A DNA stretch of 62,884 nt, the filler included, from Phoronis australis (Eukaryota; Animalia; Phoronida), in assembly GCA_002633005.1 (NCBI GenBank). It is 4 parts of 4 records of this genome, joined end to end, with 100 filler letters (N's around TTAATTAATTAA, not from the genome) between each part and the next. Parts side by side here need not be neighbours in the genome. Positions count along the whole stretch, not along the records: positions 21,324 to 39,374 come from NMRA01001476.1; 3 more parts are not named here. One strand, given 5' to 3'. A model generated the notes under the pieces. That model searched no databases, was not told the origin of the DNA, and saw nothing but the letters and a program-made list of their open reading frames with translations. Shown here in pieces: positions 8,601 through 61,486 of the stretch. Position numbers and translations under genes: made by a program. Each line of letters starts with the position of its first letter. Position 1 is the stretch's first letter.

Positions 8601-8915
8601 TAATCTATGTACTGAATTTAAATTTTTAATTACTCCTACACTACACTACAACATGTTGCATGAAATATTCACCAGATAATGATTCATTCAAGCAAATGGA
8701 ATATGTTCAATTTTCCGACAAAATGGAGGTGTAGAATGGGATAACAGATATGACCAGACAGGCCAAAGAAATCTCTTAATTCAATGGGCCATTGTGTTTG
8801 CAGCATAAGGCACACCTGTTTCTTAATTGATTGCTCAAGTGGTAGTGGTTTTCTAGTTGGCCAAGGTTTATTATGCAACTAACATCAAGAATCTACAATC
8901 GATGAAATGTAAGCA

Positions 8916-9442
8916 TTTTATGCACTCACATATTTATATGTGAGCACATTATGCCATCATCACTGTTTGTCCGGCGTATGTTGCTCTACAAAATCCTCAG
9001 ATGTATATTCCTGAAATTTTGCAGGTTTTCATTCATAGATGGGAAGGCATGAGCCTGAGCGAAGTTTTAGACGGATCCTACTGCTGGTGTGCCCCCTAGT
9101 AGCCCTTTTAGTTCTTTTCATTTACCTCTATATCTTCAAAAGTCCCTAGCGAATTTTCATAAAATTTGGTAGATTGGCTATGTAAGTGAGATGAAGTTAT
9201 TTGCCCACTTTTGGATGGATTAGATGTATTTTGCACCACTTAGTGTTTAGTGTCCATTTTTATTGTTTTCGGTATAGTTTTCTTATAATTTGGGAGACTG
9301 TGACATTTTCCCACTTTGGGATGTGTTCATTTTTTTCTGTGCTGTCTAATTGCCATTTTTATAGTACTAATACATACCTCTAAAAGTCTACCATTTGTGG
9401 TGCTATTGTGGGCACATTTCAATGCTCCACGTTGCTGTTGTT
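8916..9442 (+). mobile_element. Helentron-associated (DINE-1/HINE-like) non-autonomous element, diverged copy
   Basis: Starts ttttatgcactcacatatttatatgtgagcacattatgcc and ends gggcacatttcaatgctccacgttgctgttgtt; shares the ggatcc...gtgtgccccctagt core with copies at 25026 and 60012. Confidence 0.65.
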
Positions 9443-12433
9443 TGTGCCATTATTTTACAGAATATTTTTTCTATGTTGTATTACTGTGACCTATGCTGAC
9501 ATGACATGTAAATTACTATGTTGCCTGGTCTCTAATGGTAATTTCTCTGCTCCTTTTGAGCAAACTCAGGATAAGAGGTTATCAGACTGTGCTCGAATAC
9601 ATTATAGTTGATGCAGTTTCTAGTCCAAGTTTGCTCTTGAAGACCCTTGTATTTGTGCTACAAACTCGAGTAAAAACTCTAAATTTTGAGTTCAAGCTCG
9701 AACTTTTAGCCTTGATGTTGGGCTTATCAACTGCAAACTTAAGGCCTAATAAATTATCTGCTTAATAAGTCATTATGTATACAAGCATAGAATAATAGAC
9801 ACTTATCTTAAGTTTGCACAAAAGTAGACTAGAAAATGCCAAACATAATTTCAAGTCCATTTCGAGTAAAAAGATTAGAGACTGGGCAATTGGTTTGTTT
9901 CCTTAAGGTATACTTTTATCACTGTCCATTTTCAGATCCAGCTGACGAGAAACCACTGAAGAAAATCATGGAGTTGCCAAGACCCAGAAGAACAAGAACC
10001 AGAATTTTTGCCATGCACTGAGGAACATAGTAGACCAATAAGAGCTGGAAATATTCTGTGTTGACACTACCGACCAAAAGAAACTGGAAATAAGCATGCG
10101 TTCCTACTGGGAAGACAACAGCTGGCTTGAATTGTCATACAAAACTAACTACTTTGCCATCCCCTTGTGGCCATTTTTGTGGGGGAAGCTCCCTTGTGTA
10201 CTCAATAGCTTGCAGGATCTTCCTAAAAGTTGTTATCCTTTTCCAATCAAGATGGTAACTGACTATGGTTAATTTTTGCATCTGATTTTTTCCATCTGCC
10301 TCTCAGTCTTCCAAACAGTTCCAACAATCTCTATGAATTTTGACGTGTGCATGCAAAGAAAACCTTTATTGACATAGTTTTTGAATGGATCATACGACAG
10401 TAGCCTATATTCTTATTTGAAGGAGTCTGATAACTTTGGTGCCCCCACGTGGCATTCAATATATTTTTGAAGTGCTCTTAACACCCCTAGAAAACACTTT
10501 GTGTACGGTGAAGATGTGGATGCATGTCAATGCCCTGTGTTATTGTTTTTGATCAAAACTGTCAATTTAAAATGCCCTATTAAAATGTTTATTTCACATT
10601 ATTGTCTCAATCAAGATTTAGAAATTGGTAAAACTTTTGTATCAGCGTTAAAATACTAATGTGGAACTTATGTGCATGACATTCAAAGTGCTGGTGTAAG
10701 AACAGATGTTTAATTAAAAAGTCAGTGTTATTCACTGACTTGATTTTCATATTTATAGTTGTTTTCTAGTTCGGATTTCTAGTTTATAGTTGTTGTGATA
10801 CAACTTTCAGTCAGCGTATGTTTCTCATTGTCGTAGGCTTGCACGTCTCTAGGTGTGATTGAAAATTTCTTTTGATGTGTGATCATAATTGAAATTACAT
10901 TTTGAAATTATGCTGCTCAAGTATGTTACATTGAGTGAATATAGCACTTCTTGGGTTACTTGTCTCTGGGCAAAAACAAGCCAAATTATACAATCAAAAA
11001 TCCGCAAGTTCAGTAAGTGATGCTCGGACATAAAGAAACATTGAACTTGTTTTCTCATATTTCCTTCCATGCTAATGAATGTGCATGTTGTAGGACCATT
11101 GAACTTACTCAGTAATAAGTAATTGTCGTTTTCCTGTAGGTTTTATGACATTTTGATAAGCTTTACGACATTTCGTCTTGTGTTAGTGTTTATTGATGCA
11201 TAATAAAATACATAATGAACACAGATCTTCCGTTTTTCATGAAAGACGCTTTACACTTCTTTAGGTAGATTGTAGACATTTGCCATTGTTTCAGTGGGTA
11301 CACTCATTGATGATATTGTTGAATTTCACGCAGGGTCTAAAGATTGTTTCATGAAACATTGAAGAATATAAACTCTTCAGTTGTAAAGTACTAGTTCATT
11401 TCTGTGACACAATGTTGACAAGTGGATCGTGGTCTTGGTGCAGTAGAGCAGGCAGAATCTTGAATGTGTTATTTTATTGGGATTTGTGTGATTATTTGAG
11501 ACCTGTCAGGAAACGCTAGTGGTATACCCTATATATATATATATATATACTAAGAGAACTATACAGATCCGGGGCATTTTTATATATGAGACCTTTACTG
11601 TGGGGTTACGAAAAATTGTGGGGTATATATAATGCCCCACAATTTCAGACCTATTAGAAACTGTTATTTGACAGGCACAGTTTCTCGACGTGTATTTTCT
11701 CAACAACTTGGTTTCATAAGGACATCCTATATATAACTCTGAAAAGGCTCTCCCAAAAGATGTCACTGCTATTATGAGTGCCCTGCTTCAGAGTGCCATA
11801 TGTGACCTACATTGGTACAGTGTTATGTAATGGCCATACAGGATATTAAGTTACTTGACCTTCCACTATAACAAGCCTCTGAGGTTTTGATTTTAGTGTT
11901 TTAGAGTTGGAGTTGAGACAAGTTTTACTTCGTTTTATCTGCAACGAGTATGTTTGTGTAGAAGATGATATATTCAAGACCTAAGTCTATGGTAAGTCTT
12001 TCAAATTTCTTAATATTTTGATTATTTAAGTTATTGCAAAATGTTGGCATAATGGATGGTTAACATGCATTTGGCAGTGTCCTAGAAACTATTTCTAATG
12101 CAGAAGATGCGGCCAAATACTCGCATCTGTCCTTCCTAAAAACATTTCAAAATCTAATCACCCCTTTATTATGAGCTGAAGAATTCCTTTTACTATAAAA
12201 CTCCAGAGAGTTTTAGATTACTATGCTTTATATCGCTGAGAATAATTGCACTTAGTAGGATTTTCCAGATACACTGCGATATGGTGCCTTTTCTGACAGA
12301 ATTCCTTACAAATGGGTGCCCTTTCAGTAGCGATTTTCCTACGAAATTCGTCCATTTTGTGGACCGAAACGCTACATAAGGCCCTCTAAGATGGAGTCCC
12401 TGTATCAAATAAATAAGCATTAATTAGGCATGT

Positions 12434-14254
12434 ATGTAACAAATTCTAATAAGAAGCAAATCAGCATATGTACATAAAAACTTTTACACTTTGATCTGGT
12501 TCAATTCTACATGCCAAGCACAAACTTTTCCTTACAAAATATTTTACACTTCAAACAAGCCTGGAAAATTAGCGACCAAAGGTAAAGATATGCTGTGCTG
12601 CTTGCCCAGTTCTTTAAATGTGGGTATCTTCTTAATGTAGCATGAAACAGTTCATGTTTTCACATTGCTTCAATGTGATTGATCTAGTATCAACCTTAGA
12701 TCATTTTCAACCCTTAAATGAACCATTTGAAATCAGTGACTGAAAACCAAATCTCAAACTTGAAACGGGAAATTCTAGGGTAAAATAATTTACTGAAGTT
12801 ATTTTCTCTGGGTTGCCAAAATGTATAGGTTCTCAAATCTTTACTAACTATGTGACTAGAATGTGTTTTCACTAAACATATTTTCTGTTTTCATTAAAAT
12901 GACGGCACAAACACCAGACCAGACCATGTGAAAAAATACCTAAAAATACCTTTGAATTCTCTTAGTAACTTTGGTGTCCGCTTAATAGACTCAATAATTA
13001 AGGGATGGTTGGTCCAAAGATTCTGTGGCTCGAATGGTCAATACTCCGAAGAGTTAAGGGGAAACTTATCTTACAGTGTACGTTAGTAACTCGACAGTCA
13101 TCTAGAATAATTTGCAACATTAAACTAAGTGTTCGTAGCTTATTACGAAATTTTGAAAGATGCAGAATATGATGTAAAATTATCTGAAATCTTGAAGACA
13201 TTTAATTCTGTAGATTACGGAATAANTTTTTTCCAAGTTGGTTTACTCGGGGCTTACACTCGCTGGTGGTGCCGTTTTTGTCTTTTTTTTAATTTTTGAG
13301 TCCTGGCCCGAGGGGGGTTTAAACCCCCTGAACCCCCCCGTAGATCCGCCACTGATGTAACAAATTCTAACTTTGATAAGAAGCAAATCGGCATATGTAC
13401 TAGCATTTACACTAAACCATATCTTGAGGCATTGAGTTAAATCGCTCATAAAACTTTTACACTTTGATCTGGTTTAATTCTACATGCCAAGCACAAACTT
13501 TTCCTTACAAAATATTTTACACTTCAAACAAGCCTGGAAAATTAGCGACCAAAGATATAGATATGCTGTGTTGCTTGCCCAGTTCTTTAGATGTGAGTAT
13601 CTTCTTAATGTAGCATGAAACAGTTCATGTTTTCACACTGCTTCAATGTGAATGATCTAGTATCAACCTTAGATCATTTTCAACCCTTAAATGAACCGTT
13701 TGAAATCAGTGACTGAAAACCAAATCTCAAACTTGAAACGGGAAATTCTAGGGTAAAATAATTTACTGAAGTTATTTTCTCTGGGTTGCCAAAATATACA
13801 GGTTCTCAAATCTTTACTAACTATGTGACTAGAATGTGTTTTCACTAAACATATTTTCTGTTGTCATTAAAAGGACGGCACAAACACCAGACCAGAAAAT
13901 GTGGAAAAATACCTAAAAATATCTTTGAATTCCCTTAGTAACTTTGATGTCCGCTTAACATACTCAATAATTAAGGGATGGTTGGTCCAAAGGTTCTGTG
14001 GCTCGATTGGTCATTACTCCGAAGAGTTAAGGGGAAACTTATCTTACGTTACCAACTCGATAGTCACCAAGGATAATTTGCAACATTAAACTAAGTGTTT
14101 GTAGCTTGTTCAGGTTGTTCATTAAATAACCACGATTTCAAGAAAGAGAGCCTTGCCTGCTTTACAGAGCTTTACGGAATTTTGAAAGATGCAGAATATG
14201 ATGTAAAATTATCTGAAATTTTGAAGACATTTAATTCTGTAGATTACGGAATAA
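12434..14254 (+). repeat. Near-tandem ~0.8-0.9 kb duplication (12434-13225 and 13355-14254)
   Basis: Both copies run from atgtaacaaattctaa to tagattacggaataa with scattered substitutions and a few indels; separated by n13226 and a ~130-bp MITE end. Confidence 0.9.
13227..13354 (-). mobile_element. Terminus of a hAT-like MITE
   Basis: Reverse complement begins CAGTGGCGGATCTACGGGGGGGTTCAGGGGGTTTAAACCCCC, a typical CAG-initiated, G-run-rich hAT MITE end. Confidence 0.55.
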
Positions 14255-20940: not shown

Positions 20941-20944
<4 letters not shown>

Positions 20945-20959
20945 CGTTTTATGTTTCAG

Positions 20960-21223
20960 GAGTCGCACCCCTCTGGAGCCTGGCCTGAAGTTGGTCATCA
21001 CCCTTCGCTTCTTGGCGACGGGGAATAGCTACAGATCCCTTGCTTATGACTTCCGGGTGGCACACAACAGCATTTCCATATTCGTGCCCGAAGTCTGTAC
21101 TGCTATCTACGAGGAATATAAAGGGGAGATGTTCACTATGCCCTCCACACAGGACGAGTGGAAAGCCGTTGCCTACCAGTTTGCAAAGCGATGGAACTTT
21201 CAGCATTGTTGTGGGGCGATTGA
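20960..21223 (+). mobile_element. PIF/Harbinger (HARBI1-like, DDE_Tnp_4) transposase fragment, cut by assembly gap
   Basis: Open frame RTPLEPGLKLVITLRFLATGNSYRSLAYDFRVAHNSISIFVPEVC...WKAVAYQFAKRWNFQHCCGAI(D), matching Harbinger motifs LxITLRxLATG and WNFPxCxGAIDGKH. Confidence 0.9.
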
Positions 21224-21323
21224 NNNNNNNNNNNNNNNNNNNNNNNNNNNNNNNNNNNNNNNNNNNNTTAATTAATTAANNNNNNNNNNNNNNNNNNNNN
21301 NNNNNNNNNNNNNNNNNNNNNNN
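21224..21323. other. Assembly gap with TTAATTAATTAA linker
   Basis: 100-bp N block with central 12-mer; identical blocks at 39375-39474 and 60413-60512. Confidence 0.98.
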
Positions 21324-23975
21324 TTCCGGCCTAGTTGTCCACCGAACTGGTCCTCGAGACTCAGAGTTTCAGTTCCCAGGGACTCGGCGGGGTTTGGTTA
21401 CCTCACTCAGCCCATATGAGTGCGGAGTACAGGGGCCCGGGTCTGGTTTGGTGTCTGATGCTGGTTCGGGACTGGAGCTTAGAGGATCAGCTAAGCCATG
21501 GGAACGTTTTCGCACGCATGTTAGCGTGTCAACGACCTCCTGAGAAAAAACAAATCGCTATGTAATGGCGCCATCTTGCACACTTTTTATCATTGCGACT
21601 CATTTAACAATTGAAGGCAACACTGACATATCTACGCTAATAGGGAAGACATATTGGTGGACGTAGTGGATAGATTACAGTGTTTTTATAAGTCATGTAC
21701 TTTAGACAGTTTGACATACACTTCGTAATTATGATGTCTCGACCTGCGGCGCATTACGCGCGGTCGATAAGTTGAGAGAGCAAAAATGAGGTATTTATAC
21801 AGCCTCGGGGATAGCACGAACAGAATAAGACAGATGCGAAACTCGCAATATGTAGAATTTCCGAATAAGCGCCACGGAAGCGTGTCAATGAATGTGCAAG
21901 CCTTAATTAGGAGGAAATTTCCCCCAAGACCAGAACCCATGTTCTAATCTCCGACCTCCGAATCGAAACTGAACGTTACATCTCGCCATTTTAGTTTGCT
22001 TAAAACAAAACTCTAACTTGACCTTTTACACTTATGGAATCAATGTCATAACGTTCCTCAACGTGATAGGGTNGTAGTAACTAAACTGATGAGAATAACA
22101 CCGTGTTCACATGAGAAATCCATAAGACAAATCATTCACCGTGATGATTTTTTGCACAGTCATCTACGTGTAATTATCAAATATAAAGAACTTTTTTACG
22201 TTTATTTTTAATTGTACCTCAAAAGAAACACCTTATTTGATTGACTTTAAAAGCAGGCGAGCAAAACGAGTACAGAACGATTACCATAGAAGACTGCCCA
22301 TAAAACACTGTAAGAAAGTCGCAGCATAGATTATAGACAACAGATTTGCAACTCCGACACTTTGTTCCGTGTTAACCAAGAGGAGGCGTCGCTATCCTAA
22401 ATTATCTGGAGCAGTTTCCGGTTAGTATATTTTGAAGGGAAATTCTAGCATATACTTTTCTGTCCAGTACAACAAAAATATAATAAATTCGGCATTGAAA
22501 CGCTGTTATAAAGTCTTCCAATAGTAGAATTGTTGGTATCGTGAGTAATTTGGCAATGGTTCTGGTAATGAACTACAAAATTCAAACTTCGGTGCCGACT
22601 GATTATGTCGTCTGCTTGCACAAAACATGTACTAGCAGCATAGTTGTTGGACAGTTTGTGATTCATTGTTCACATACTGAGAAAACTACGAAAGCATATT
22701 TGTTCACAAATTCCAAGGAGTACCTGTGAATGCAATAGATACTTGTATAACATTTTTGTTTTAGAAAAACATTAATTTTGTTCGGATTAAAAAATGCGCC
22801 GCTGCAACAATTTCACTGATTTAACCTTTATATGGTTATAATTCAACCGTTTCTCAAGTGAGCAGTTCTTCTGGGAAGTGTTAAGTTGCCCTTAAAACGG
22901 CCGTTGGTTGTACTATGCATGAGCCTTAGGACGTTAGGCATAGCGTGAAATGGTTCTTAAAAGAACCGTTGAATAATTCAACAAAATCACACAGTATACC
23001 GTGCTCACTCAATTACTGAAGGTGCTCTTCATTTAAGTTTTCATCAGGGAAGGTTGGATGAAAAGAGACAAGATCACAATATCGATGACAGTTGTAACAC
23101 CATTGTTACCGTTCACCAACGTTACAACGACCCCTGCCTCGTTCAGTTCTTGTTCATGGATCCACAGTAATCCTGAACCGCAGGGAATAAAGACATACAA
23201 CAAAGCGAATCAAATTTCGAGAATCCTCGCCTTCGCAGGATTTAATGTTGCTGTCGCCATACCGATATTCTTCCCCAACATCCATGTCGAAAATTGCGTT
23301 GCAAGTGATGGAAATTTTGTGTACTTTGTTTCTAAATTTTAACCGATTTTTCAAAAAGGGGGTGTACTGATTATGCCTAATGTTGATAGAGCACGACTTG
23401 TGGTTTTTGCAATGCATTAATCGTGTTGAATGCATATATATTAAGTGGCCTCATTGAGTTGAACAGAAAATAAATTAAACGTAACACACTGAAGTTTCGA
23501 AAATATAAATAGCAGTAACAGACTCCCTAAAATCAAGTGTGTTTTCGAAAGGTTTGCGCCCGTAGACATCGTTGTATAAAGATGTCTATGTTTGCGCCGT
23601 TCGTGGCTGGAAAGTGATAGACCCAGTTATTGTGCATGTGTACACTGTAGCAATGCTTTGTATCTTATTTTTATTTGGCTAGTCTGTTGATCAAGTAAGT
23701 TTTCTTATTTATACCCATATAGTGATTTGGTCGCAACTTGGGCTTCGTGGGTTCTACCATATTGGGGCTGGCCTAGGGACTCACGTTGTCTTTACTAAAG
23801 TTCTGGACGTTGAATTATTGTACAATGTATACACTACTGTACATTCTTTTAAACCTACTGCGTAGATCTTAAAAACAAATTAAGGCTCACGGCAATTCGA
23901 TTGAAACAGCTTCGAAACATTAAATTCTGTGTTATAACAGACAACGATAATTTATTTAGAAGTGCAAATACTTAC

Positions 23976-24110
23976 AGGTTCACCGTCCGCTCCTCTGGGT
24001 CCTTGGTTGCCAGTATCCCCGGGGTATCCTGAAGGTCCCCTGGGTCCGGCCAACCCGGGAATACCCTGTTTTCCTGTCTTTCCTACATTCCCGGTCTCAC
24101 CGCGTAAACC
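23976..24110 (-). CDS. Collagen triple-helix exon (135 nt, 15 Gly-X-Y triplets) of a type IV-like collagen gene
   Basis: GLRGETGNVGKTGKQGIPGLAGPRGPSGYPGDTGNQGPRGADGEP bounded by ttttcccag acceptor and gtaagt donor, phase 0-0. Confidence 0.93.
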
Positions 24111-25025
24111 CTGGGAAAAAATCAGGACGGCAATTACATTAGAGCACATTACATTGCATGTTACGCGTGATATTAACTCCTTCCGATTGCCAACTAGTAA
24201 AAGTAATAAAAATGGTGAAAGGAATTTTTTAGATTGTATTATGATACTGTCAATAATTAGACAAAAACAATGACAATTGCAATGACAAGGTCAAATGCGA
24301 TGGCGATGGCGATGGCGACGGCAAAGGCAATGATTATCATAATCACCATCATCACATCACCATCATTGTTGTTATTTGATTGTTATTGTTATTAACAATA
24401 TTATCATTACACTCAATAATCCTTATGCAAGAATGTCATGAGAATATACAGTGTATAGATACCACGCATCTGTCGTTAGGGGTTCAAAGTTACGTGGCAC
24501 GTCTCAGTACATCTTATAGCTCCGCCTATCTTTCAAAAGTTTCTGGAGGAAAAGCAACGACATTGCGATCGACTGATGCGTGTGGGGTCGCAAATGTTTG
24601 TTGTACTTTACTTATGCATTTATACCACATATTTAATTCATGATATTTTATCTTTTTACCCATACATGCTACTAGATTCTATTTTTTATATCTGGAAACA
24701 TGAGAGTTCGGAAGGCAATGAAACTTTCTAGACACGCGGCGAACACACACACGTACTTGCGTTTGCTCTTTCCGGGAATTTCCGCAACCTGACCTCCCAA
24801 ATGAACGGGCATAGGATTAAATTTAGCGTACTTTTGAAGTCACAATTATAATTTCTCAGGGCTCGTAGAGTTTCTAGAAATAAATATCGAATAGACGCGA
24901 GTCAGGCCAAAATAAGGTTTCGTCCACGTTTACAATCAGTCACTCAGCTAGTTATTTAGACGCCGGTTTTGTTCAGGTGTCATTTTATAGAATTTTACAA
25001 TTAAGGAAGCACCCATCATGACCTA

Positions 25026-25909
25026 TTTCACCCCCCTTTTGATATGTGGACGCATTATGGCGTCATCTTCGTTCGTCCAGCGTCCGTCCGTTCAGCGTCC
25101 GTTGGTTTATCTCCAAAACCCTTTGACGTACGTCCATGACATTTTACACACATGTTACTTTTATGGATGGGACGGCATGAGCGTACTTTCGGATGGATCC
25201 GACTACCAGTGTGCCACCTAGTGACAATTTTAGTTTTTTTACGTTTACCTCTATATCTTCAAATATCCTCAACGTATTTTCGTAAAATGTGGCATATAGG
25301 CATCTGTTAGTAAGATGACGCTACCCCCCCCCCGTTTTCGGATGGAATCGATGTAATTTGGGACACCTAGTGGCCATTTTTGCTGTTTTAGAGTCTGTTT
25401 TTTGGCGTCCACTCCTCTATCAACCAAACTGATCTAAGGATGATTGTGAAAATTGGCATATATGTTCTTACTACGAAGCTGACTATGATTTTCCGGCGAC
25501 TTCGACAGACTGTTGCGCCTCCTAGTGGTAGTTATATTTTGTTTTGCGCCCATTGCTGCATCTCTTAAACACACTGCAGAATCTTTATTAAATTTAGCAA
25601 TTATATTTATTTGAAGCTAGCAACAGACGACGACGTCTTTCAGGTGGATCCAATGAACGCTGTGCCCCGTAGTGGCAATTTCATTTTTTCCGTTTGTCTT
25701 TGTTTCTCTGAAGTTCCTCGACAGATTTTCATGAAATTTTTGTGGATAGATTTCTTTTAAAGATGCATTGGAATTATCACATTTTGAGATTGATTGGTCG
25801 TTTTTGCGCAATCTAGTGGTTATTTTTATGAAACAAATAAACAATCCTAGAAGAACCCCTTTTGCGGTGCATTCGCGGGCGCATTCCAACGCTCCGGGTT
25901 GCTCTTGTT
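25026..25909 (+). mobile_element. Helentron-associated (DINE-1/HINE-like) element with about five ~150-bp core repeats
   Basis: 5' ggacgcatta motif, (GTCC)-like microsatellite, cctagtg-type core motif at about 25217, 25366, 25521, 25667, 25812; 3' gggcgcat sub-TIR and ...ttgctcttgtt end. Confidence 0.75.
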
Positions 25910-26999
25910 CATTGATAAGCCGCCCGTTTCTCAGAGCACGTCCGGCCGCTATTTTGATAGTTGGGTACTAGAACTGCAAAAATGTACCGTTTTTCCCAAC
26001 ATAAGCCCTTGGGCTTACTTTCAAAAATTCTCCGTACTGACTAAACTTTAGTTTATAAATCTGTCTAAGTGTCGGAGTAATGACTCTTGTTAGTGCTTTG
26101 AGCAGTTCAACGCAAGGTCTCATTTGAAGTAGCGTTTATTCAGTCATATTTTGATCTTGTAAATATCATTTACATCACCGTCCCTATAAGATTAGCACCA
26201 CTGTCTTCCATTCATATCAGGTTATCGGTCTTCTTGGGGATGGATGCGACGGAGTGAATGGAAACCTGGATACGGTTTTGGAAGGATGTGCTTTTATTAC
26301 AGTATAGAATTACTTTTTAAGGTGCAGTCTTCCTTACCATAAAATCTAGAAATCTGATAGCCAAACAAGACTCCATAAATTCGAATTTTTCTAAACATAG
26401 CAGCATCGGTTTCATCATTCAAATGGACATAGGAAACAAGATTGAGATTTAGTTAAAGTCGTCAAATTGTAAATGGCTGTCCATCATTACGGTTTGGCTC
26501 GCCATAGTGCACAAGGTATGTGCTTGTGTTGAACAGAACCTTGAAGTCCAGTTTCCAAATAGGATCTTCCGACAGCTAAATGGAAGAAATGAGTTTTAAA
26601 AAAATATAAACTATGAACCTGAAGTTGCAGCCGATTCCGTTAGTCAAACGAAAAAGTTTCGTTCGTCCGTTGTAGCAAATTACCGACTGTAATTTTTGCT
26701 GGTACGACAACTTCAGTGTTAATAATTGATCTTAGTTTTTGTGTTATTAATTTCAACATTCACACAAGGGCACGCGTCCAGCACTGCACTTTGAACCAAG
26801 GAGTCTGACTCTGGAGCGCCGGTCATTTGATCCTCAAGTTACTATGAGAGGAGAAACTCGAAACATGATATACGTTGTTTTAAAATGATAAGCGCCTTGC
26901 AGTCTTTGTCTGGACTCTACACTAACGATCTGGTCTTTTCACCATTTCAGGTTATCATTCTACCAGTCTTTTATAAATCGATCATTCCGTTTCCCTTAA

Positions 27000-28451
27000 A
27001 GGAGAATGCCACCCCGTTTAATTAGTCTTTTTACCGTCTTAATCGGTCTATATCCACATCGCCTCTTGTACGGTCCACCGCAACTTGTCTAGAGGTGTCG
27101 CATTAACCTGTGAGGAAGTTGAGAAACGACGCAGCGACGTCAGTGGTTCATCTGCAGAATGAATGCCGCTATATTGCGGTGTATCGTTCCCGCTTGTCCG
27201 AACTGTAAAGCTGCGAAAAAAGTGGGTATATCGTTTTCTCAACTTCCTCCACAGCCCGAAATGCCTAGGACGTGGCTCGTTGTAGTGAAGAATGAAAAGT
27301 ACGCTGTTAATATCAAGTATGAGGCCGTTAAACAGCTCCGTGTTTGTGGCCGGCATTTCGTCGACAATGATTTCTCTGACCGGCGTTCCGGCTTACCAAA
27401 GATCTATCCATACGTTCCGTTGCCTGGGCATTTTCACGGCGCCTATCTAGTATTTCTTGATCAGTGTATTCCGGTTCGAACTGATAGCCTGTGAAACCTA
27501 ACGACCCGACCAGCGAAGTCTTCGTCGGAAGAGCTCTCGACTAAGTCGGAATTGGCGCCGGACGAGTTGGCATGTAGACGTTCGTTATTCTGCGTTCTGT
27601 TTCAAAATGAATTATTCCCATCCTACTCAATGCTTATATAAAACAGAAACATAGTCTGTCTCATTTGATACAATTGGTAATTGGAGTATTCTTGAGTGCA
27701 AATGTTTTGAGAAGCCAGCAATGAATAAACCACTGCGTTACCAGCTTTAGATGCAATAAAGGTAATTGACCGGGCACCGAGGACTTGTGAGCACACGCAA
27801 ATTCAGTGTTTGCTGACAAAAAGCTGTTGTGAAACAGTAACTAGATTTTATATGCTATGGTCACATGTTAAGGGATTCTTTATTTAGATATACAAATACA
27901 TTATTCAAATCACTGTTACTGTACAACCTTTGCCCTGACGCTTCTGTGGAAGGGAAACCCGAGTCCGGGGCTCCAGAAAAGAAAGTAGATTTTCAGTTTC
28001 GTGGCTAATTCACCTAAATAATTACACACTATTTCTTTGGCTCACTATTATAGTCTTTTCGTGACTGAAGGTTTAGTTTCCAACTTAAGCGGGTTTATGT
28101 TCGTGATGTCCAATCCCGGCGGCCGCGACGGGTCTGATCGTGTTCCAAGCCACTGGCGGGGAGTAACAAGCGTTTTGTGTGTTTAAAACTGAAAAAATCG
28201 CAAGTCTAAAAGTACAACACACAGCTATGTTCCCCCGTCTGTATTTCACGGAAGAATGATTCGAATTTAGCACTAAACAGACCCAAACTCACGCGATCGA
28301 CCATGGTAAATTGGCCTACCGAACTCTGTTTAATTTCAACATCTCCGTTTGCCGTAAGGTGTCAGGTAAAACAACTGAACATGCTATTATCGAGTGGAAC
28401 TACTCGATCTAAACTGATACAAAATAGGTTGTTTTTGGGGGGCATTCTTCG
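27000..28451 (+). mobile_element. Kolobok-like non-autonomous DNA transposon carrying a THAP domain
   Basis: TTAA at 26996-26999 and 28452-28455; imperfect TIRs AGGAGAATGCCACCCC / CGAAGAATGCCCCCCA (12/16); internal THAP ORF. Confidence 0.65.
27159..27494 (+). CDS. THAP zinc-finger (C2CH) domain ORF, transposon-derived, no catalytic domain seen
   Basis: CIVPAC...FSQLP...W...VCGRHFVDNDF...P reproduces the THAP C2CH, P, W and F signature. Confidence 0.75.
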   Translation: MNAAILRCIVPACPNCKAAKKVGISFSQLPPQPEMPRTWLVVVKNEKYAVNIKYEAVKQLRVCGRHFVDNDFSDRRSGLPKIYPYVPLPGHFHGAYLVFLDQCIPVRTDSL

Positions 28452-30376
28452 TTAATGTCTAGATAGAAAATCGTTCACTCAATGGTTTCCGAAAAAAAAT
28501 GCAAAGTTCCCATCGCGACCTCTTTGGCGGAGCAAAATATGTAGTTTGTAAAAAAGCAGGCAGGTAGGCGGATATAAATCGCTGTGAAAACAGTCACATG
28601 GGAATGTTGTTATTACCACCAGTACACCATGTGAAGAAAACTGGTGGATCTAAAACTCCTACGGTCAGGTTGACATGTGGAATAAAATTGTATTAATACG
28701 TAATTATTGTTTGTAAAAGTCCGAATTTTTCTTAATATTTCAAATTCAGTTAATGCTGGCGACCTGTTGTTAATTTTGCGGTGGAATCTATCTAGCTATA
28801 ACAACGTGCTGCAAATCGGGATTTCCTTTACTCTCAATTCTTACCTGCTTAAATTTAATAATGATGATGCATTAAGGTCAACAGGTTTATTGATTTAAAA
28901 AATTAAACACCGACCACAGGCGGCGCTAATAGCGACAGGTGGGGCGCTTTAGTACATTCAAGGAAATGTCGTTGAGAGCAGTTGTTGTCCTTAAACCATA
29001 TTTTGTAGGTCGAATTCAGTCTGAAATAAATCAAAAATCTTGGAGCTTCTATTTTGGTCCTAAGAAAGCTGAAGAAAAGTGAGGGCTGATTTGCTTTATC
29101 AAAAAAATAAAAACAAAAAACAAAAAAAAATCGGGTCCCAGCTCAAAACAAACCGATGCCATTCTCTGAACATGTACCAAGACACCGAATGATTATGATG
29201 AAATAACATTAGACTTTTGAGAAGACATATCAACACTGCTGAAACCTTCGAAGAACCGGCGGGTCCGACCTCTGTGCCGTGTTACTTATTTCGGATAGCG
29301 CATGTCACCAAGCCTCTTAAATAGGACGAGTTAAATTTGTATGCCCTAGAGCAGGTCTCAGTAATGCCTGCGGAATGGAATCGTTTACACCGGGATGTTA
29401 TAACATGGATGTCTTGAGGTGTAAATCATTGAGTCATAATTAGCCTACTTTGATTCACCAAACTGTCGAATTCTGAATCCCTGTACACGTCTGCATGTAC
29501 CGTAAAGTTCCTGTCAAGACATACATAATTTCGTGACGAAACTTGCTGAGGACATGCGCATTGAACCAGACAACTTTGGTCAAAACATGATTTAAATTCG
29601 GCCACACAGTCCACTACCGCGCTGGTTCGTTCTGAAAGATACGCCTTTTTTCACATTCACCAATTTAAAACACGGGATGAGTTTCGACAGTCGAAAGATA
29701 TCACTAAAATACAAACATTTTGTAGCTTTCATGCGTTTTTGTGCTTGTTTTACTTAAATAGTTTTTAAAAAGTGAACAGGATCCTTAGGAAACCTCATTA
29801 CTCATGGCGGCCCATGTGTGATTACCCATAATGCACGAGTCAGTTGTCACTTACTATGGCGCCCACTTTACGTGGCAGTGGAGCAGAAAAATCAAAAGTA
29901 AACAAAAATTCGTAGTAAAGTCAGTAAAGTTATAGATATTTTAAGTTGTGTTGAAGTGTTGAATGTTCATTATCTGAGCTAAATAAGCGTTAAAATCCGG
30001 TTTATAAACTTTTTAAACTCAAGTGTATCTTTCAAAAAGTGGCTTAATTGGTACTTGTATCCTCTCGGTTTTTACTAGTTTTCGAGATCATACAGAGAAC
30101 TATCTTGGAATGACCATTTCTCGTGGGGTAACGTACACTTTTACCAAGTGTTACTCTATTCCAGAAGTGAGGGTGAAGCTGCGACAGCACCCGTAGTGCT
30201 ACTTCTTGCGTGTACGTAACAAAAGAAAAGAAAAGAAAAGAAAAGAAAACAAAACAAAACATCAAAGCAATGATTCATAGCGGCCAACAGTATACAGTAA
30301 CTATGAGAATAACCGAAACAACCGGCTCAGATACATATCCCAAGTTAATTGACAATAAGCGTTCCGTTACACGTAC

Positions 30377-30421
30377 CCTTTCTCCCTTTGGCCCGGCACA
30401 CGTGCACCCTGTGGAACATTC
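30377..30421 (-). CDS. Collagen 7S-like Cys-rich exon, copy A (ECSTGCTCAGPKGER)
   Basis: 45 nt, ttcttacattccag acceptor, gtacgt donor, phase 0-0; CxxGCxCxGxKGER resembles the collagen IV 7S start and continues the Gly-X-Y register into exon 24110-23976. Confidence 0.85.
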
Positions 30422-30500
30422 CTGGAATGTAAGAATCAGAAGTCACTTTATTGTGGGCTGTCGTGTAAGTAACAACGTATTGCTATACAATATGGGAATT

Positions 30501-31892
30501 CATCATTCACATATTTCAACATTTAAGGCCTTGGCCCACATGTTACATAAAATTTACAGGATAACGCTGAGCAGCTTTTCCCTGAGGGTAGTGGCGTGAA
30601 ATACAAATTTCATTAGATTGAGCAATGGGCTGCGATATTTTCACTAGCTTCACAAATTTGTGTTTATTTGGTTCACGCCTGCACCACTCAGGTATAAATG
30701 CAGTTCTCAAAGAAAAATAGGTTTTGAACACATATAAAATGGGACACACAGAAACAACACACACGGCATTTTTGGTCCACAAGAGCATGTCTACCTTTCT
30801 CTATAATAAAGTTATTGTTAGAGCAGCGTAATTTAATCTTTAATTCGCTGCTCAAAAATGACAAGAAAAGATGCTTCGCAGCCAACTCCCTGATTGTGCC
30901 ATACCTATCCAAAACCATACCTTTTGCAGCAAATTCCTAACAGATGAAGTCCAATTTTTACTACCAGCCTCATCCAGTGCGACAAGCTTGTCATAGACAG
31001 ATCTTGAATTTCGATGTGCTGGCCTTTTTAACAAGTTAAACCAATACTTGATCAATTTAACAAACAGCTTTACATAAATTGGATACCTTCCCAGTTCTCC
31101 CAGGACAGCATGATTTGGACAGTTACTTCTAACACCCAGCAGCTGCTTACATAATTTCAATTGGACGCGCTCGATACTAGAATATTCTTTAAATCCCCAA
31201 ATCTCACTTCCATGGCTAATGATTGGGTGTACCATTTTATCAAAAATCTTGAGTGCAATTTTCAGTGACAGTCGTCCACATTTTGACTGAAAACGTTTAA
31301 TTGAAAAAATTGCTTTCTTTGCCAGGTGAGACAAAGTTTCCGTAGCTTGCGTCCAGTCTAACTTAGGAGTAAGGCAAATACTCAGGTACTTATATGATGA
31401 GACGACATCAACTTTGTCATTTCCGAAATGCCATTTTTCGTATTTTCCGCTTTTTCTAAATGCCTTTATTTTTGTTTTGGTAAGGTTGACTTTCATACCC
31501 CAATCCTAACAGTATTCAAGACGAGCGTTAATTTGTTGCTGTAGTTTAAATGCTGTCTCTGCGCAACCAACCATATCATCACCGTATAACAACATGCAGA
31601 TTTGAGGCACATACTCATTTACGTAAATTCCACTAATTAAAGATTCTTTTAAGTAACCAACAACCTCATTTAAATACATAGTAAATAAAAAGGACTAAGC
31701 ACACACCCTTGGCGAGTACCAATATTATTAATGAAAAAGTCAGTTAACCCACGCTCAGTTCTTACACACACTGCGCTTACATGTAGCTTTGAATAAAAAG
31801 CTTTTCATCAATTTCAAAACACTATCATGAATTCCTATTTTTTATAACCTATTCCACACAAATCTATGTGAAATACTGTCAAAGGTCCGGTA
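30501..31892 (-). mobile_element. 5'-truncated degenerate RTE/RTEX-like LINE (RT domain and C-terminus)
   Basis: Minus-strand FDSIS, GTRQGCVLS, LLYGDD, then ORF 31496-30852 with VNLTKTK, YKYL, GSEIWG, LGELGRYP; stops and frameshifts present; tgaatgatg-type 3' tail next to 30501; flanked by 203-bp direct repeats. Confidence 0.9.
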
Positions 31893-31971
31893 TAACCGTA
31901 AGAATATTCGAAACAACCGGCTCAGATACATATCCCAAGTAAATTGACAATAGGCGTTCCGTTACACGTAC

Positions 31972-32016
31972 CCTTTCTCTCCTTGACCCCGTACACGAAC
32001 ATCCTGTGGAACATTC
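31972..32016 (-). CDS. Collagen 7S-like Cys-rich exon, copy B (ECSTGCSCTGSRRER); alternative exon or pseudoexon
   Basis: Same acceptor and donor as copy A, open frame, three Cys retained, but one triplet Gly replaced by Arg (GGA vs AGA). Confidence 0.55.
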
Positions 32017-33274
32017 CTGGAATGTAAGAGTCAGAAGTCACTTTATTGTGGGCTGTCGGATAAGTAACAACGTATTGCTCTACAATATGGAAATTACTGG
32101 CATTCAACAACCTCAATACATGTACGTAGTTTTTTCAAACCCCGGCGGACAAAATGTCCTTGTGACCGAAGATACATACGGTTACTAGTTGGTATTGATG
32201 AACCGAAGGCAAAATCAAAGAACTAAGCCCTTTCATTTTTAAAATATTATATAAGAGCACTAACTCGTAGTGTAAATGCATCAAAATAAAACACCAGAAC
32301 AGTTCATGGATTAACGCAATAGATATTTCAAAACTCTAAACAAAATTATAGAGAACGTGTTTTCTGTTTCGCCAGACTCCACTGACGTAATCTTAACTAC
32401 GGTGAAGGATGTGTTGCGTGCTCGTGATTCAGTTTTAAAGTCGTGGGTTTTGTCACGCACTTTCTATTATCTGATAGCGATGCAATCTTCAGTGGCGCAA
32501 AAGTTTCTTTAAATCATTCCCACAGCAGCGCTACGAAGATGTAGAAATTCTGAAATATGGGCCGCCTAGTTTTTACTAGGCTTTTAAAAAGGCTTCATAA
32601 TCTATTCAAATAATTTATGAATAAGACTCCTTTGGACACGAAGAACCTTTGACATTGTATTTTACAAAATGATTCATTTGCAGCTTCAAAACTGCAAATG
32701 GCAAATAAAGGTGCAAAATTACGCCGCGTCATATATTTTTTGTTTTTGTCCGTGTGACACGTCTTTGAGCGAAGGCATCCTTTCCCCCACTTATATTTTA
32801 CCCGCATACAGTGTACATAACTGATACACTTTGTGCTTGCGGTATAAACCAGTGCGGAACAATGTAACCGGAATTTAAAACTCTTTAGAAATTTCGCTAG
32901 CTTGCTAATGTTTTTTAATGCGAACCGCCTTCACACCATGCTTACTTTAGCCCAAATTCGCTTGTACATTATGCATACGCGAGTAACCTATATCAGTTTT
33001 GTGGTTCTTACAAACACCCAGTGTACAGGACGGTTTCTTCACAGTAACGTTGACAAGCTCCGTAGAAATAATTAATTGAGCAACGGGATTTACAAATTGT
33101 TGTTACAGATCCAAGTTCCATATACAAGTTGTGTAGGCATTTACGCGACATTTACCTATACGGTTTCATCGTCGAGCGACCTCCCGACGGAGTCACATCT
33201 GTCCGAGACGAATTATTTAAACATGTGCCGACTACATATGTAATTCCACATGTACAGCATTGCAAATATTTTTT

Positions 33275-33495
33275 TCATACATAAAGGTTGGCTAAGAAAA
33301 TACATCTGATTTTTGATCTTCAAACGATTTCCAAAGGAGATTACACATTCAAAAACATCTTTCCAGAAGTGATTGCCATTATTAGAGAAATTTATCTCGA
33401 GAAAGTCAACTCGTTACTTGGAGAAATTTCTGAATTCAGGAAAAATCAAATGAAACTAACAGGCAGTCTTAGACTGACCATTTAACAATTTTGTG
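33275..33495 (-). mobile_element. Tx1/L1-type LINE ORF2 remnant, downstream part
   Basis: Minus-strand NHFWKDVFECV...FLSQPL resembles the post-RT NxFWKDV...PLW segment; continues the fragment at 35470-36075 across an inserted element. Confidence 0.6.
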
Positions 33496-33499
33496 TTAA

Positions 33500-35465
33500 G
33501 GTAGGTGTATACACTGATCAAATCTCCAGGTTCCTAACTAAAATGAGTAAAAAGGGAGTTTTAACTAGTTAGACATGACTCTGAAAGTGACAAAAATCGA
33601 AAAAAAAAGTTTTTTTGTAGTTCGTTTTTTTAATCGTATTTTTTAATTTTCAAAAAATCTAATTTTACCTCGAATTTTTTTTTTCAAAATGCACAGGGAT
33701 CATCATCAACTGTTTCCTTATATTCTACTTATCCATACCAAATATATGTACAAAATCATTATGATCTTGATTTTGTGGCATTTTTTTGTGTGTGAGTTGG
33801 GGCAAGCACGCCACTTTTTGTCATTTGGTCACTTTCCGTCTAATAACTAAAAATCTGGTCCATTTATCAAAAAACCCTGGCACGCGATTTTACTTCAGTC
33901 CTAGAAGATTTCAAATTTGCAACTTTCGTAAAATTGACGCACGTGTTGTGGAAAAATAGGCCCGAGAATCTTGTCACTAACCTGAAATCACGAGCCGAGA
34001 AAAACGGCTTTCAAGTTAAGCGGTCATCGATTGCCACTTGAGATCAAATTTCGTTCAGAATGCGCGGTCATTATGTTCCAGTTTTTGTTGAAATACTAGA
34101 AATAAAGCTGATATTTACTTCATATTTAGAAAATGTGACATACCTGTTTGTTTACAGCGTAATTTTAATCATTTTTTCGAACTTGTGAAGCACGACTGAC
34201 GACCAAAACAAATATGGCTATCACGTGGGCGGAGCTTAGCGTTGATCTATTGTCTACTGAACTGGTGTGCCGACCACACATTAAACCCATGTGTTGATTG
34301 TTTATACGATTCATCTGAACTCTACACTCAGTTTGTAAAAGACTCTCTAACTATATTACACAGACCTATTAGTTAGTATTCCAATATTATCATCAACCAA
34401 TATATGTGTTATATGAAATCGCCGCGTTACTGCCTACATAACAATATTGGCGACGAGGATAAAGAACTTACTACTTTCATAGTAATGGTTCAACATTTTT
34501 ACGTGCCTGTACCGAATGGACTTTGGGATAAGAAAATATCACTTTCTGCGCAAATAGCGCCGCTTGGATGAGATTCTCAAGTTACTAAAGTTTCTTATAT
34601 TGCTTTCCTCTAAAATCGTATAATATAATGAGTTTTAATTCAGGGTTACGTTTGAATCTATGCACTAGAAAATTTTTTGTAATGTTGAACACTGGGTCAT
34701 TTCTCTAATTCTTTGGGTTACGGCCAGTGGCAAGTTAAAAATCCTCTGTGTTTGACAGCCTAGTTTCTCCACGGCGCGTTCCCAGCACAGAAGCACGGTT
34801 TATCTGCGAAGACTCTACTCTGACGGCATGTAGTTGTCCATGTGTCGCGTGTGGCTTGTCTTCACAGCGCGTCGTGCATGCACTCTCATCGAATCGTGCA
34901 ACACCACCCACGTCGACACTCAGCGTCCTCTCGCAAGACACCTGACCTTATATTACCGACTTCTCTAAAACATGCACGATTTCTGCACGGACTCCTCAAG
35001 CTGAGTGCAGTGATGGCTTCGGTAGGGCTTGGCGTACTCAACTTAATTTTTTTGCAGATAGACAAACAGGCTCAGGCTCGGAACAGGAGCTAGTTCACCA
35101 TTTCACTACCAACTTTCACATGGTCAAAAATAGAATTGTTTTATTCTTGGTCTTGCTACAACACCAATATCAGCTGGTACATCATTCTCGATTGCCCGGT
35201 TACGCAATGCTTGTTGACAGGGTTAGATTAGAGCTAGACAAGTGTCCTTGTATTTAAGCTCCGCCCAGTTGTCAATCACTGAGCTGGTGAGCACTCCAGT
35301 CATATGACTTACTGAGGCTTGGTCAAATATAGCTAAAAAACAAATTTGGATTTTCAGAATGATTTTATTTTTCTTCAGTATACTGTGCATCAAGAATTAA
35401 AGATTAGGATGACATAAAAATGTAAAAAACAGTCAAAATTAATTTTTTTTTTGTATCCACCTACC
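33500..35465. mobile_element. Kolobok-like DNA transposon (~1.97 kb) inserted into a LINE
   Basis: TTAA at 33496-33499 and 35466-35469; TIRs GGTAGGTGTATACA / GGTAGGTGGATACA (13/14); internal inverted gggcggagctta motif near 34228 and 35255. Confidence 0.85.
34448..34460 (+). other. LTR-retrotransposon primer binding site, complementary to tRNA-Ser(GCU) 3' end
   Basis: TGGCGACGAGGAT following an LTR-end-like ...acataacaatat; identical 13-mer precedes the Gypsy gag at 61297-61285. Confidence 0.7.
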
Positions 35466-35469
35466 TTAA

Positions 35470-36075
35470 TCATTCTGATACCTCCTTCATTATTATATAC
35501 AAACGGCTCGGGAGCGCTTAATTTTATCACTGCGACCTTGCCAGAGGAATTTAAAAAACATTGAGTTCAATTTTTTTAGAATATGTTTCGAAGGCTGTGG
35601 CAAGAATATCAGAAGATGTACAATTTTTGAAACAGCAAGCGTCTTGATTACTGTAATCCTCTCGAAAGACGTTAAAATTCGTTTGGACCAATTTTTCATT
35701 ATTAATTCAATATTTTTCAATTTCGCCAAGTAATTCTGGTCTGCCATATCATGTAAGTTACTTGGAAATTAATCCCCAAGAACATGACAGAAATTTTTTC
35801 AGCACCGTTTGCCATGCTGCCAAACCAAATGGCTTTTGTTTTTTCTACATTGACCCTGAGGGCGGAGAATGGAGCAAACAGATTTAGAACATTTCAAGTA
35901 GACCGTAAAGACATCTCTGAGCCATCTAAAATAATAGGAGTGTCATCAGCATATTGCGTTAGTAAATACTCACGATCCATAATTTTGATTCCATTTGTAT
36001 TTTTGTTGTGTCTGATCATGAGAGCCAAAATATCCGCACAAATAATAAATAGATAAGGAGATAAATATATCTTTT
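35470..36075 (-). mobile_element. Tx1/L1-type LINE reverse transcriptase remnant
   Basis: LSPYLFIICADILA...GIKI...QYADDT, NVEKTKAIWFG and WSKRILT...IKTLAVSK...FFKFLW...KIKR...GGIRMI motifs, broken by frameshifts. Confidence 0.9.
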
Positions 36076-37398
36076 GCTTGACTACCATTCTTTGCTGAAG
36101 CAGTTGCCTACATGCACATGTAAATTTCAACCACGGAAGTGAATGTTAACTTTTTTGGATGATGCAATTGAAAAGAAGACGACTGAAAAAATACAAGACA
36201 GTTCTATGAAGAAAACAGGAACGAGATAAAAAAACAAAAGTGCTGTACATGTATCTGCGCTGATAATATATTTAAGTGAAGGGGAATTTAAAATACGACG
36301 AAGGCGCGGGCATAGGGCTCAAAAGTTGTAACACAGCACCCAATTAATTCGTCATTATACTATTCACCATGTGCCGGGTGTAATGTTTTGGCGATAGTTT
36401 TACACATCCATAGTGCACTAATGAATGTTAATGCTTTTCTACGAAAACACTTTAAAAACGAAATAAAAAATTATGCACCAACATTCGCCACGAGGGCGAG
36501 AAAAGTGCATCTATTAGGTACAATGTGGGAACCTTCATCAGCAGGAAAGGAAGAAATGCGAGAATTTATTATTTATACATACACAAAATGAACCGAGAGT
36601 GGTATACACGAAGTAATATCTAACAAGACATTATTCCTCGTATCGACCGATACCTAAAGTCGAACTTGCGCGTTAGATTGCAAGTTTTCTATTGTGAAAG
36701 AGGTAACAAAGATGAAAACAACGGCAACTGTGCAGTGAACTTGTAACATCTCCTGGAAATAGTTAAATAAGAACAATATTTAATATTTTAGTTTCCTAGG
36801 AATAGGCGCCTGAGTTTCAGACGATATAGTATTCAGCAATTGAAAATTGAGACATAAGTGCCATATAATTAACAGTTTTGTTCTAGATTTTACGTTTAGA
36901 GCCTGATTGCATGTCGAGTTTTAGTTACACTGCTTCAACTGTATTACTTTAAACTATATTCGGAAACTTAGATGATCGAGCCGGCTGAAGACGTCAAGTC
37001 GACGTTGACCTACCTTTTGAACCTTCCATGGCAAAGGTCACTGTTGAAGTAGTACGGGAGGTGAATACGGAAGACATTGTCACATGGCCGTATTTCCCTC
37101 GTCAGATTCAACGCGTATGAGATAAACGTAAATAATTAAAACAGCATGGCTTGTTCTATCTCCGACTAGACGTTAGTAGGTAGTCTAAAGATAACCTTTT
37201 TTAAACACAAGAGTTAGAGAACGTCGGAAAATACTTCAGCAAATTTATTCGCCTGATGGGCACGCGTATACTGTGCACACTAAAATTCACCGATGTCTCG
37301 AACTGTGTCGAGTGTGCATACCACTCTAATTTAGGAAGGAAAGAAATTGATTGCCACAATAATTTTTAATGAATACAACTGCGTGCAAGACTACCTAC

Positions 37399-37475
37399 CT
37401 CACTGGAGTTGTTTTTAGGAGACAATGGCAATATGGTATCACTTTCGATCACTACATTCTGAGCTGCTAAAGGGT
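37399..37475 (-). CDS. Candidate upstream exon of the collagen gene ((D)PLAAQNVVIESDTILPLSPKNNSSE)
   Basis: tttattttcag acceptor, GAG|gtaggt donor, 77 nt open frame phase 1 to 0, compatible with the phase-0 7S-like exon; no homology evidence. Confidence 0.45.
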
Positions 37476-38403
37476 CTGAAAATAAACCATACGATTGAAA
37501 AGTGCTGACTTTTTCTACGATTTTCGATTAATTTTGAATGGTTTGAAACTGAAATTAGATAACAGCGTACGAATTTTCACGGGGATTATGATTTTTCAGC
37601 AAATACTTGTATTCTTAACCCACAACTGAAAATAAACGTTCATAAAAGCAAACCGTTTCGAGTAGGCTTTTTCGGGGACACCGACCAAACATTTTCACTA
37701 TTATTGTCAAAGAAGGCAAAAACACGCAACTTTGGGAACTATATACTTGTAAGGCCATTATTTGTTTCCATGTATCACATACAAATTTTTTGTAGATTAG
37801 AGATTTACATTTTAACCCCTTTTTTCACCAAGAGTGAGGCAAAGAAACTTTAAAGTAAGCTAATTTTCAACGGGCGTGTCCATGCTGCGTAGCTTTGTTG
37901 GGAAACAGAAAAAAAACTGAGGAAATTTTAATGACCTGGAAATGCGTTAGAGTCGAAAATACAATTGGGAACACTGCGTCACCATTTGCGTCATCACATC
38001 TCGTCACATCAACGAATGTTCATATTTTAAAGATTGAAACAATTTTATCGATGAAGATTGACAGTTGAAGACATGGGACCAAGATTTCACATACTGACAC
38101 GAAGTTTAACTCGGAAATATTTTTGGGGCATTTTTATTCTACTTCTGTGCGAGCTTTAGACAAGTTCCCATTAATTTATGCTCGAGCACGTAATGGCTTG
38201 CATGAATAACAACAATCCTAGTTTGCACTTGGTGACTCGTGCATTAAGCCTGCACATTTGGATCTAACTTTGATATTTGAATTGTTACCAAGAAAATGAA
38301 ACATCTCCAACACTAATCTTTGTCCCTTTTGCCGATTTCTTGAAGGTAGCCTAGATACCCAGCGCGCAACAATACAAGTTTTCCGGTATTCCAATGACTA
38401 ATT

Positions 38404-39374
38404 CAGGCCCGCAGGAAGGCAAAAACTTTTTTTTGGAGGGGGGACACAAACCATGTCGACTTCGCCAAACAACCCCCATCGCCACCACCTCCACCACCTC
38501 CCCCCCGTCACTTCCGTCTTCCCGATTCCACCATATTTGTACCGAATCTCCCACGTCCGCCCTACGTGAGGGGTGGCACAGTTAGGGTTGGTCAAGGAGC
38601 TATGGCCCCCCTAAAATTCGCCCAGATCCCACTTGGCAATTCAGGGGTGCGAATTTCTTACGGGTAAAACTCTGGCTAATACTCTGCCCTGCTCCCCCCA
38701 CTCAAAATCCTGGACCTGCCCCTCGGACAATCCCGGAGTAACCGTGAACCAGTACGGAGAGTGAGAATGGGCCTAGGAGCAGTACACCGACCGGTAACGA
38801 GAAGCTCCCTCAAGTTCCTATAGCTGAGATCTAACAGTGTGAAAATACGATACGAACTAAAGCTAGTTGCTGGTCAGCTGAGCTGCGATTTACTTTAGAC
38901 AGGCAGCTCGCACCAGCCGTCTGCGCTCTCTCTAAGGTCAAGATTCGTCTTTTTGTGTTCCATTTTCGGAAAACTTTATTTTATTGTGGTCATTCTTTGA
39001 AGGAGTTTTTTTGAAAAGGTGAGGTCCCGAAGTCCCTGGTATAGTGTCTTTGGAGCTGTTTCAAAATGCCTAATTGAAACACGCCCGGTAGCCTAATTTG
39101 TGGTGGCTGTGTCCCAAAAATGTACACACTTCCTGAACGCCTGGAGTTCAAATTCAGTTCCCGTGGATCACTGAGATTCTGCGCGGGCCTGCTGCATGGT
39201 TTCATATTATTTTTAACGTGGGTACATCAGTAATGACGTGCACGCGAATCAGAACAAGCAAACACTACAGTTTCGAAGAACAAAAATTCATTGCTTAATA
39301 CTACTGGAAACTAAAAATACCAAGAAAGTGCAAAGACAACCTTTTGAACAAGTGAGTTTAATTTTATTTCTTTA
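38404..39374 (-). mobile_element. Second, inverted copy of the hAT-like element end seen at about 18150-18994
   Basis: Begins CAGGCCCGCAGGAAGGC; colinear inverted similarity (e.g. translated MGDSVQIW and FQxGILKQxQRHY in both copies); runs into the gap. Confidence 0.8.
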
Positions 39375-61443: not shown

Positions 61444-61486
61444 AAACTCTGATCTGAAGATATCCAGTCCGACTCTTAAGGAGTTA

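Follow-up and report, generated by a model that had tools for sequence, protein, structure and literature searches.

Target-site duplications (TSDs) of more than 100 bp accompany up to 10% of L1 insertions in HeLa cells and most of those in cells deficient in nucleotide excision repair, with lengths of up to 5.3 kb, and according to Servant et al. 2017 long L1 TSDs could duplicate exons (PMC5223499). Among other long interspersed nuclear elements (LINEs), Dualen-4b_cRei of Chlamydomonas leaves duplications with a median of 900 bp and the rotifer R9 a TSD of 126 bp (PMC9977147). Here, we describe a locus of Phoronis australis (assembly GCA_002633005.1) at which a 45-nt exon of a collagen gene is present twice, once in each of two copies of a 203-nt repeat on either side of a 5'-truncated LINE. 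The window, that is, the whole stretch of DNA that was analysed, is 62,884 nucleotides long and joins four parts of the assembly; the locus lies in the part from NMRA01001476.1 (positions 21,324 to 39,374), and all coordinates are positions in the window. The insertion of the LINE, which is RTEX-like, probably duplicated the host exon itself, by a one-off long TSD.

The C. elegans element Rte-1 is reportedly (Youngman et al. 1996) associated with a direct repeat of ~200 bp in prk-1 that is partly coding. Rte-1 belongs to the RTE clade proper and, if this is right, offers a partial precedent, in which coding DNA was duplicated but no whole internal exon in use. It lies in an intron of prk-1 (PMC1291365), and TSDs of 10-20 bp are given for the other RTE elements SR3, HmRTE-e01 and HzRTE-1 (PMC1291365, PMC2887409). 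As with L1 (PMC5223499), the present locus has a non-LTR (long terminal repeat) insertion between target duplicates of more than 100 bp, which for L1 are put down to a distant second nick. The L1 cases are de novo events in cell culture, whereas here the event is old and germline, is present in more than one haplotype and has both exon copies in one messenger RNA (mRNA). Dualen and R9 likewise have the target duplicated on both sides of the LINE, well over the usual 5-30 bp; there, however, the long TSD is a property of the family, tied by the authors to the two endonucleases of Dualen or to a fixed site in ribosomal DNA, and the available text mentions no spliced duplicate exon (PMC9977147). 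Four further papers (PMC12477816, PMC3636483, PMC7943196 and PMC7602945), as far as their text was available, added nothing on the TSD question. An incomplete literature search yielded no natural example in which a TSD had duplicated an entire spliced exon, which does not establish its absence from print. The class of mechanism is known and its outcome was predicted (PMC5223499), and a natural case with RNA support is uncommon.

The repeat pair and the LINE between its copies

Positions 30298-30500 (copy 1, on the 3' side of the LINE and downstream in the gene) match positions 31893-32095 (copy 2, on the 5' side of the LINE and upstream in the gene) without gaps at an offset of 1595, with 20 mismatches in 203 nt (14 transitions and 6 transversions). 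The pair had been described in a sequence-only reading of the window and was recovered both by realignment and by blastn (E 4e-77); no third copy was found by blastn in the window. Also in agreement with that reading, each copy holds a complete 45-nt phase-0 exon with acceptor and donor, on the minus strand. Of the mismatches, eight are exonic, five lie at the left edge and seven are spread over the other 142 nt. The nearest N's are at 22073 and 39375, with none in between.

The LINE occupies 30512-31889 on the minus strand. It is decayed; read from 31889 to 30512, it corresponds to the C-terminal half of a reverse transcriptase (RT) of the non-LTR type, with frameshifts and 7 stops in 345 codons. 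The protein P0109 matched it in tblastn with an E value of 6e-58, and there were 24 matching proteins, among them one from amphioxus and one from a limpet at 42-47% identity; a Pfam search with two stop-free pieces of the LINE found no family. An extension of the RT match by tblastn to 31922 was discarded as chance, the same host DNA being present in copy 1 and a sister LINE differing there. Sister copies of the LINE were taken from DNA contigs of three runs of a single sample, from which the assembly itself may derive. At 30512-30514 they part from the window and continue as TTTA-type repeats, with a consensus agreement of only 0.52-0.62; one sister contig continues beyond 31889 with the remaining RT motif, and a small hairpin-like motif lies just inside the 3' end of the LINE in the window. 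By these three findings the 3' end of the LINE is natural and its 5' end truncated. In a survey of related loci the hairpin motif gave 13 matches, of which 3 were not at the 3' end, so that it stands near the 3' end in 10 of 101 loci. The summed contig depth in X1 is 500-10,000 over the LINE, with its peak at the 3' end, against 30-140 in the flanks, which is the pattern of a multi-copy LINE subject to 5' truncation.

A conserved motif of the GGGCC-N-AGGCC type, found in the window at 30530-30545 (minus strand), stands shortly before the tail in LINEs of unrelated samples (loci L003, L004, L006, L011, L012, L018, L019, L021, L063 and L070), and may be a 3' signal recognised by the RT.

The edges of the repeat may reach ~10 nt further each way than the gapless match. 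On the 5' side of the LINE, the repeat probably starts at 31888-31890, because the LINE ends at 31889 and the left edge of copy 1 in a second haplotype aligns onto 31888-31920; the start of the repeat would thus probably coincide with the 5' end of the LINE, with an overlap of ~2 nt. On the other side, a gapped alignment extended the repeat to 30509/32106; this extension was not above chance, as 111 of 300 random flanks scored equally well. The 11 nt between copy 1 and the 3' end of the LINE (30501-30511, minus strand) are unlike the TTTA-type repeats of the sisters, TGAA-rich tails occur in some relatives, and the stretch may be either a short decayed tail or a decayed end of the repeat. The copies had been described as directly abutting the LINE, and they do abut both its ends, at most 3 nt apart or overlapping by 2 nt on the 5' side and at a distance of 2-11 nt on the 3' side.

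Of the 24 related proteins, 23 have an RT, 4 an endonuclease Pfam match and 16 a C-terminal CCHC-like motif; the LINE in the window matches the lead-in to this motif, and the motif region itself has decayed. RTEX elements have a second open reading frame (ORF2) with an apurinic/apyrimidinic endonuclease, an RT and a C-terminal CCHC-like motif, which marks RTEX and not the RTE clade proper of Rte-1, the latter not being known to have a C-terminal zinc motif. RTE-clade elements are described as having a short 3' untranslated region that ends in AT-rich repeats (PMC1291365). Compared with the RTE clade proper, the repeat tail alone fits, and the relatives carry the CCHC-like motif. As a lead from these comparisons, the element appears RTEX-like rather than Rte-1-like. 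The bridge to Rte-1 was not borne out, given the motif in 16 of 24 relatives.

Splicing of the duplicated exon

The exon in copy 1 (ECSTGCTCAGPKGER; 30377-30421, minus strand) and that in copy 2 (ECSTGCSCTGSRRER; 31972-32016, minus strand) both have an acceptor ending in TTCCAG and the donor GTACGT; the donors are the same and the acceptors near-identical. The neighbouring host exons, on the same strand, are an upstream exon of 77 nt (37399-37475), which ends in phase 0 and whose 5' edge was placed from its acceptor, and a downstream exon of 135 nt (23976-24110) with 45 Gly-X-Y residues (Pfam PF01391, E 1.2e-08). Splicing was assessed in four RNA runs, with 18-19% of each raw run read; the joints quoted are among those listed, and there are 55 weaker ones besides. 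The exon of copy 1 was spliced in all four runs. The joint to the downstream exon (24109-30376) was present in 2, 5 and 23 reads and in 1 contig, and the joint straight to the upstream exon, skipping copy 2 (30423-37404), in 1, 7 and 36 reads and in 1 contig. The duplicated exon is thus spliced in frame to a Gly-X-Y exon and belongs to a collagen gene.

In X7, a sample from another study, copy 2 was joined to copy 1 (joint 30420-31971) in 10 reads with 9 starts, with CT..AC ends and a short side of 45 letters. Three bins of the depth over copy 2 in this run each imply ~12 reads and reach the 5' edge of the copy-2 exon. Counting inclusion (10) and skipping (36) from alignments at thresholds of 85 and 90, the inclusion of copy 2 in X7 was 10/46 (22%, interval 11-36%); copy-1-type sequence falls under the 85% alignment threshold on copy 2, because the two differ at 7 of 45 positions. 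For all joint reads the first mates were on the plus strand, as expected of RNA from the minus strand. Copy 2 is an in-frame minor cassette exon, which, when included, would place 15 more residues, three of them cysteines, ahead of the helix. New here is the RNA, which shows copy 1 in use in all four runs and the two copies spliced together in X7. A 5-nt micro-exon between 30423 and 37404 was considered and rejected, since 37399 is the end of the upstream exon and the letters at 37403-37402 in all four RNA runs are not those of the window.

The type of the collagen was not settled by database searches, which gave 108 generic, 26 PDB and 7 collagen IV matches, none of them decisive. The exon had been called 7S-like; none of the 7 collagen IV matches had a usable N-terminus, no NC1 or other domain exon was found in the window, and the label was not confirmed. 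A similar cysteine cluster ahead of the helix occurs in 3 VWA-type collagens.

Origin of the duplication

That the LINE insertion duplicated the exon by a long TSD is favoured because both edges of the repeat meet the ends of the LINE, the LINE has its natural 3' end, and the ages match. The ends of the LINE were set independently of the repeat, by the sister copies: the 5' end at 31889 compares with a repeat start at 31888-31893, and the 3' end at 30512-30514 with a repeat end at 30500-30509. The copies of the repeat are 9.9% apart (7.6% outside the exon), and the sister contigs compared, which are the longest listed of 944 pieces, show 12-45 differences in 166-307 nt (~7-15%), by which rough measure the repeat is no older than the insertion.

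Starting from the repeat, the LINE with its two ends, the splicing of copy 1 and the joining of copy 2 to copy 1, all observed directly, the following course may be proposed. Target-primed reverse transcription would have taken place with two strand nicks ~205-220 bp apart, the first just upstream of the exon, and complementary DNA (cDNA) would have been synthesised from the 3' end of the element. Truncation within the RT domain would have been followed by second-strand joining ~200 bp away, possibly via a 2-nt microhomology at 31888-31889, and fill-in would have left a second copy of the 45-nt collagen exon with its splice sites. Afterwards, copy 1 would have kept the task of opening the helix (Gly-Pro-Lys-Gly-Glu-Arg), and copy 2 would have drifted, losing the Gly register and keeping perfect splice sites, to become mostly skipped.

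The locus is polymorphic. Position 30395, one of the 20 mismatches, has the letter C of copy 2 in 33/70 of the depth in X1 and in 43/43 reads in X7. A contig of X3 spans the junction between the LINE and copy 2 (31740-32022) with 10 differences in 283 nt and no gap, and therefore represents a second LINE-bearing haplotype. Haplotypes at the locus differ by 3.5-11%; the most divergent contig, beside copy 2, has 36 differences in 331 nt (11%) and may represent either an empty allele or a carrier that has diverged. Compared with the window, the RNA animals have 7 differing positions among the 135 nt of the collagen exon in X8, and in all four runs two changed letters where the upstream exon ends; with such shared sites the duplication is therefore common to a divergent stock. 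As observations in their own right, the RNA runs share letters unlike the window in coding exons (37403-37402 and 24015-24076), which look as if a cryptic sister species, or a population that has diverged, went under the same label, and the flank at 32004-32330 occurs in X2 in three versions (with 0 differences, with 35 differences, and as a contig that skips 32121-32255), so that more than two haplotypes may be present in sample S1.

Several observations weigh against an origin by insertion. The TTTA-type tail of the sisters is absent from the LINE in the window. An empty site was not found among the 11 joints listed, which is weak evidence either way as short contigs break at shared words, and no contig crosses the junction of copy 1 and the 3' end of the LINE among the contigs listed, with 920 further pieces outside them. 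Inclusion of copy 2 was seen in X7 only, one of the three raw RNA runs: X5 and X6 had zero depth on the inclusion strand versus 1 and 7 skipping reads, for which the chance at a rate of 22% is 0.14. The joint of the upstream exon to copy 2 follows from the depth and is not among the joints listed. Finally, no flanking repeat was found in relatives of the LINE, of which we surveyed the best 80 of 230 confirmed metagenome loci and 21 loci in prokaryote bins (0/80 and 0/21, with ~7 testable, as a flank is missing from most of the contigs); these ~7, in which the 5' end is truncated and both flanks are present, had no long repeat and no clear short TSD. Their proteins are only 30-45% alike, and the short-read assemblies from which they stem are liable to break at repeats. 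The relatives may thus be taken as weak evidence against a clade-wide habit of long TSDs, and they are silent on the family of P. australis itself. With 0/101 distant relatives showing a flanking repeat and the short TSDs of the RTE elements cited above, TSDs of ~200 bp as a habit of the family, on which the sequence-only reading had leaned, were not borne out. It is doubtful that the RTEX-like family routinely makes such TSDs and, with hundreds of copies, acts as an engine of small-exon duplication, with a retained, regulated collagen isoform here whose doubled cysteine cluster changes cross-linking. A search of viral contigs for relatives gave 7 pattern matches, none of which was a relative. 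The 21 prokaryote-bin contigs (L081-L101) carry an animal-type LINE, several come from invertebrate symbionts, and they are probably host DNA left in the bins.

The missing tail and the lack of long repeats around the relatives would also suit repair of a double-strand break or a stalled fork, in which a local tandem duplication captured LINE cDNA at its junction without staggered nicks, or a LINE that landed exactly in the junction of an older duplication. We regard this as unlikely, as the element begins, just as expected of priming at the tail, with its natural 3' end, the age of the repeat agrees with that of the LINE, and an independent LINE would hardly come to lie only a few bases from the junction in ~11.6 kb of intron. 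Unequal crossing-over between two LINE copies, one upstream and one downstream of the exon on different haplotypes, would leave a single chimeric LINE with a copy of the exon on each side; the family is an abundant one (summed depth of as much as ~10,000 versus 30-140), and haplotype differences of 3.5-11% could cover much of the 10% between the copies. The two insertions would, however, have to be of the same family, on the same strand, ~200 bp apart and both segregating, which makes this quite improbable.

The remaining alternative is that two alleles were set in tandem around the repeat during assembly. Duplications of this appearance lie beside N gaps in the window (4126-4265/5471-5610; 12442-14254), and allelic divergence beside copy 2 reaches the 36 differences in 331 nt given above. 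Against this, neither flank of the repeat pair has an N within 8 kb, a contig spans the junction of the LINE and copy 2, and the 10 spliced reads (9 starts) that hold both exon versions come from a sample of another study; we consider an artefact very improbable. Alleles collapsed in tandem, which the sequence-only reading had named as an outcome that would refute it, are nearly excluded by the RNA. Duplication of the host exon by the LINE insertion, as first proposed, stands as the best-supported reading, with both copies in one message by RNA and the empty site not found.

Elsewhere in the window, the identical 140-nt repeat 4126-4265/5471-5610 has each copy touching a single N and looks like a contig-end overlap artefact, and the tandem duplication at 12442-14254 (~0.97-1.03 kb, 88-98% alike, N at 13226) is probably two haplotypes side by side. 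A second, unrelated LINE RT fragment lies in the upstream intron (35493-36082, minus strand; tblastn E 9e-05). ORFs at 20943-21275, 27048-27494 and 60457-62241 appear to resemble a Harbinger transposase, a THAP domain and the gag/integrase of an LTR element.

Fate and meaning of the second copy

Setting aside 30395, the exon of copy 2 differs from that of copy 1 by 2 silent changes on 10.7 sites and 5 replacement changes on 34.3 sites, and 5 of these 7 changes are from G/C to A/T. Positive selection on copy 2 was considered and rejected: the ratio is near-neutral, and the exon exceeds the non-exon part in changes only weakly (Fisher p 0.14; 0.04 when the left edge is left out). The three cysteines and both splice sites are all kept, a retention that is compatible with chance. 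Judged from these counts, copy 2 appears to drift at a neutral-like rate and any function is putative; it is likeliest a tolerated minor isoform. Rather than reflecting a habit of the family or a selected isoform, the duplication as a whole most likely goes back to a single old event that was tolerated.

Tandem exon duplication is among the main sources of new alternative splicing, and how such a duplication arose can rarely be seen. At this locus the probable cause still stands between the two exon copies, and both copies reach the mRNA. The locus would be a natural example of what was predicted from cell culture (PMC5223499). If the family does so often, repeat annotators that look for short TSDs only would miss such events, which assemblers might also remove in the belief that they are false duplications.

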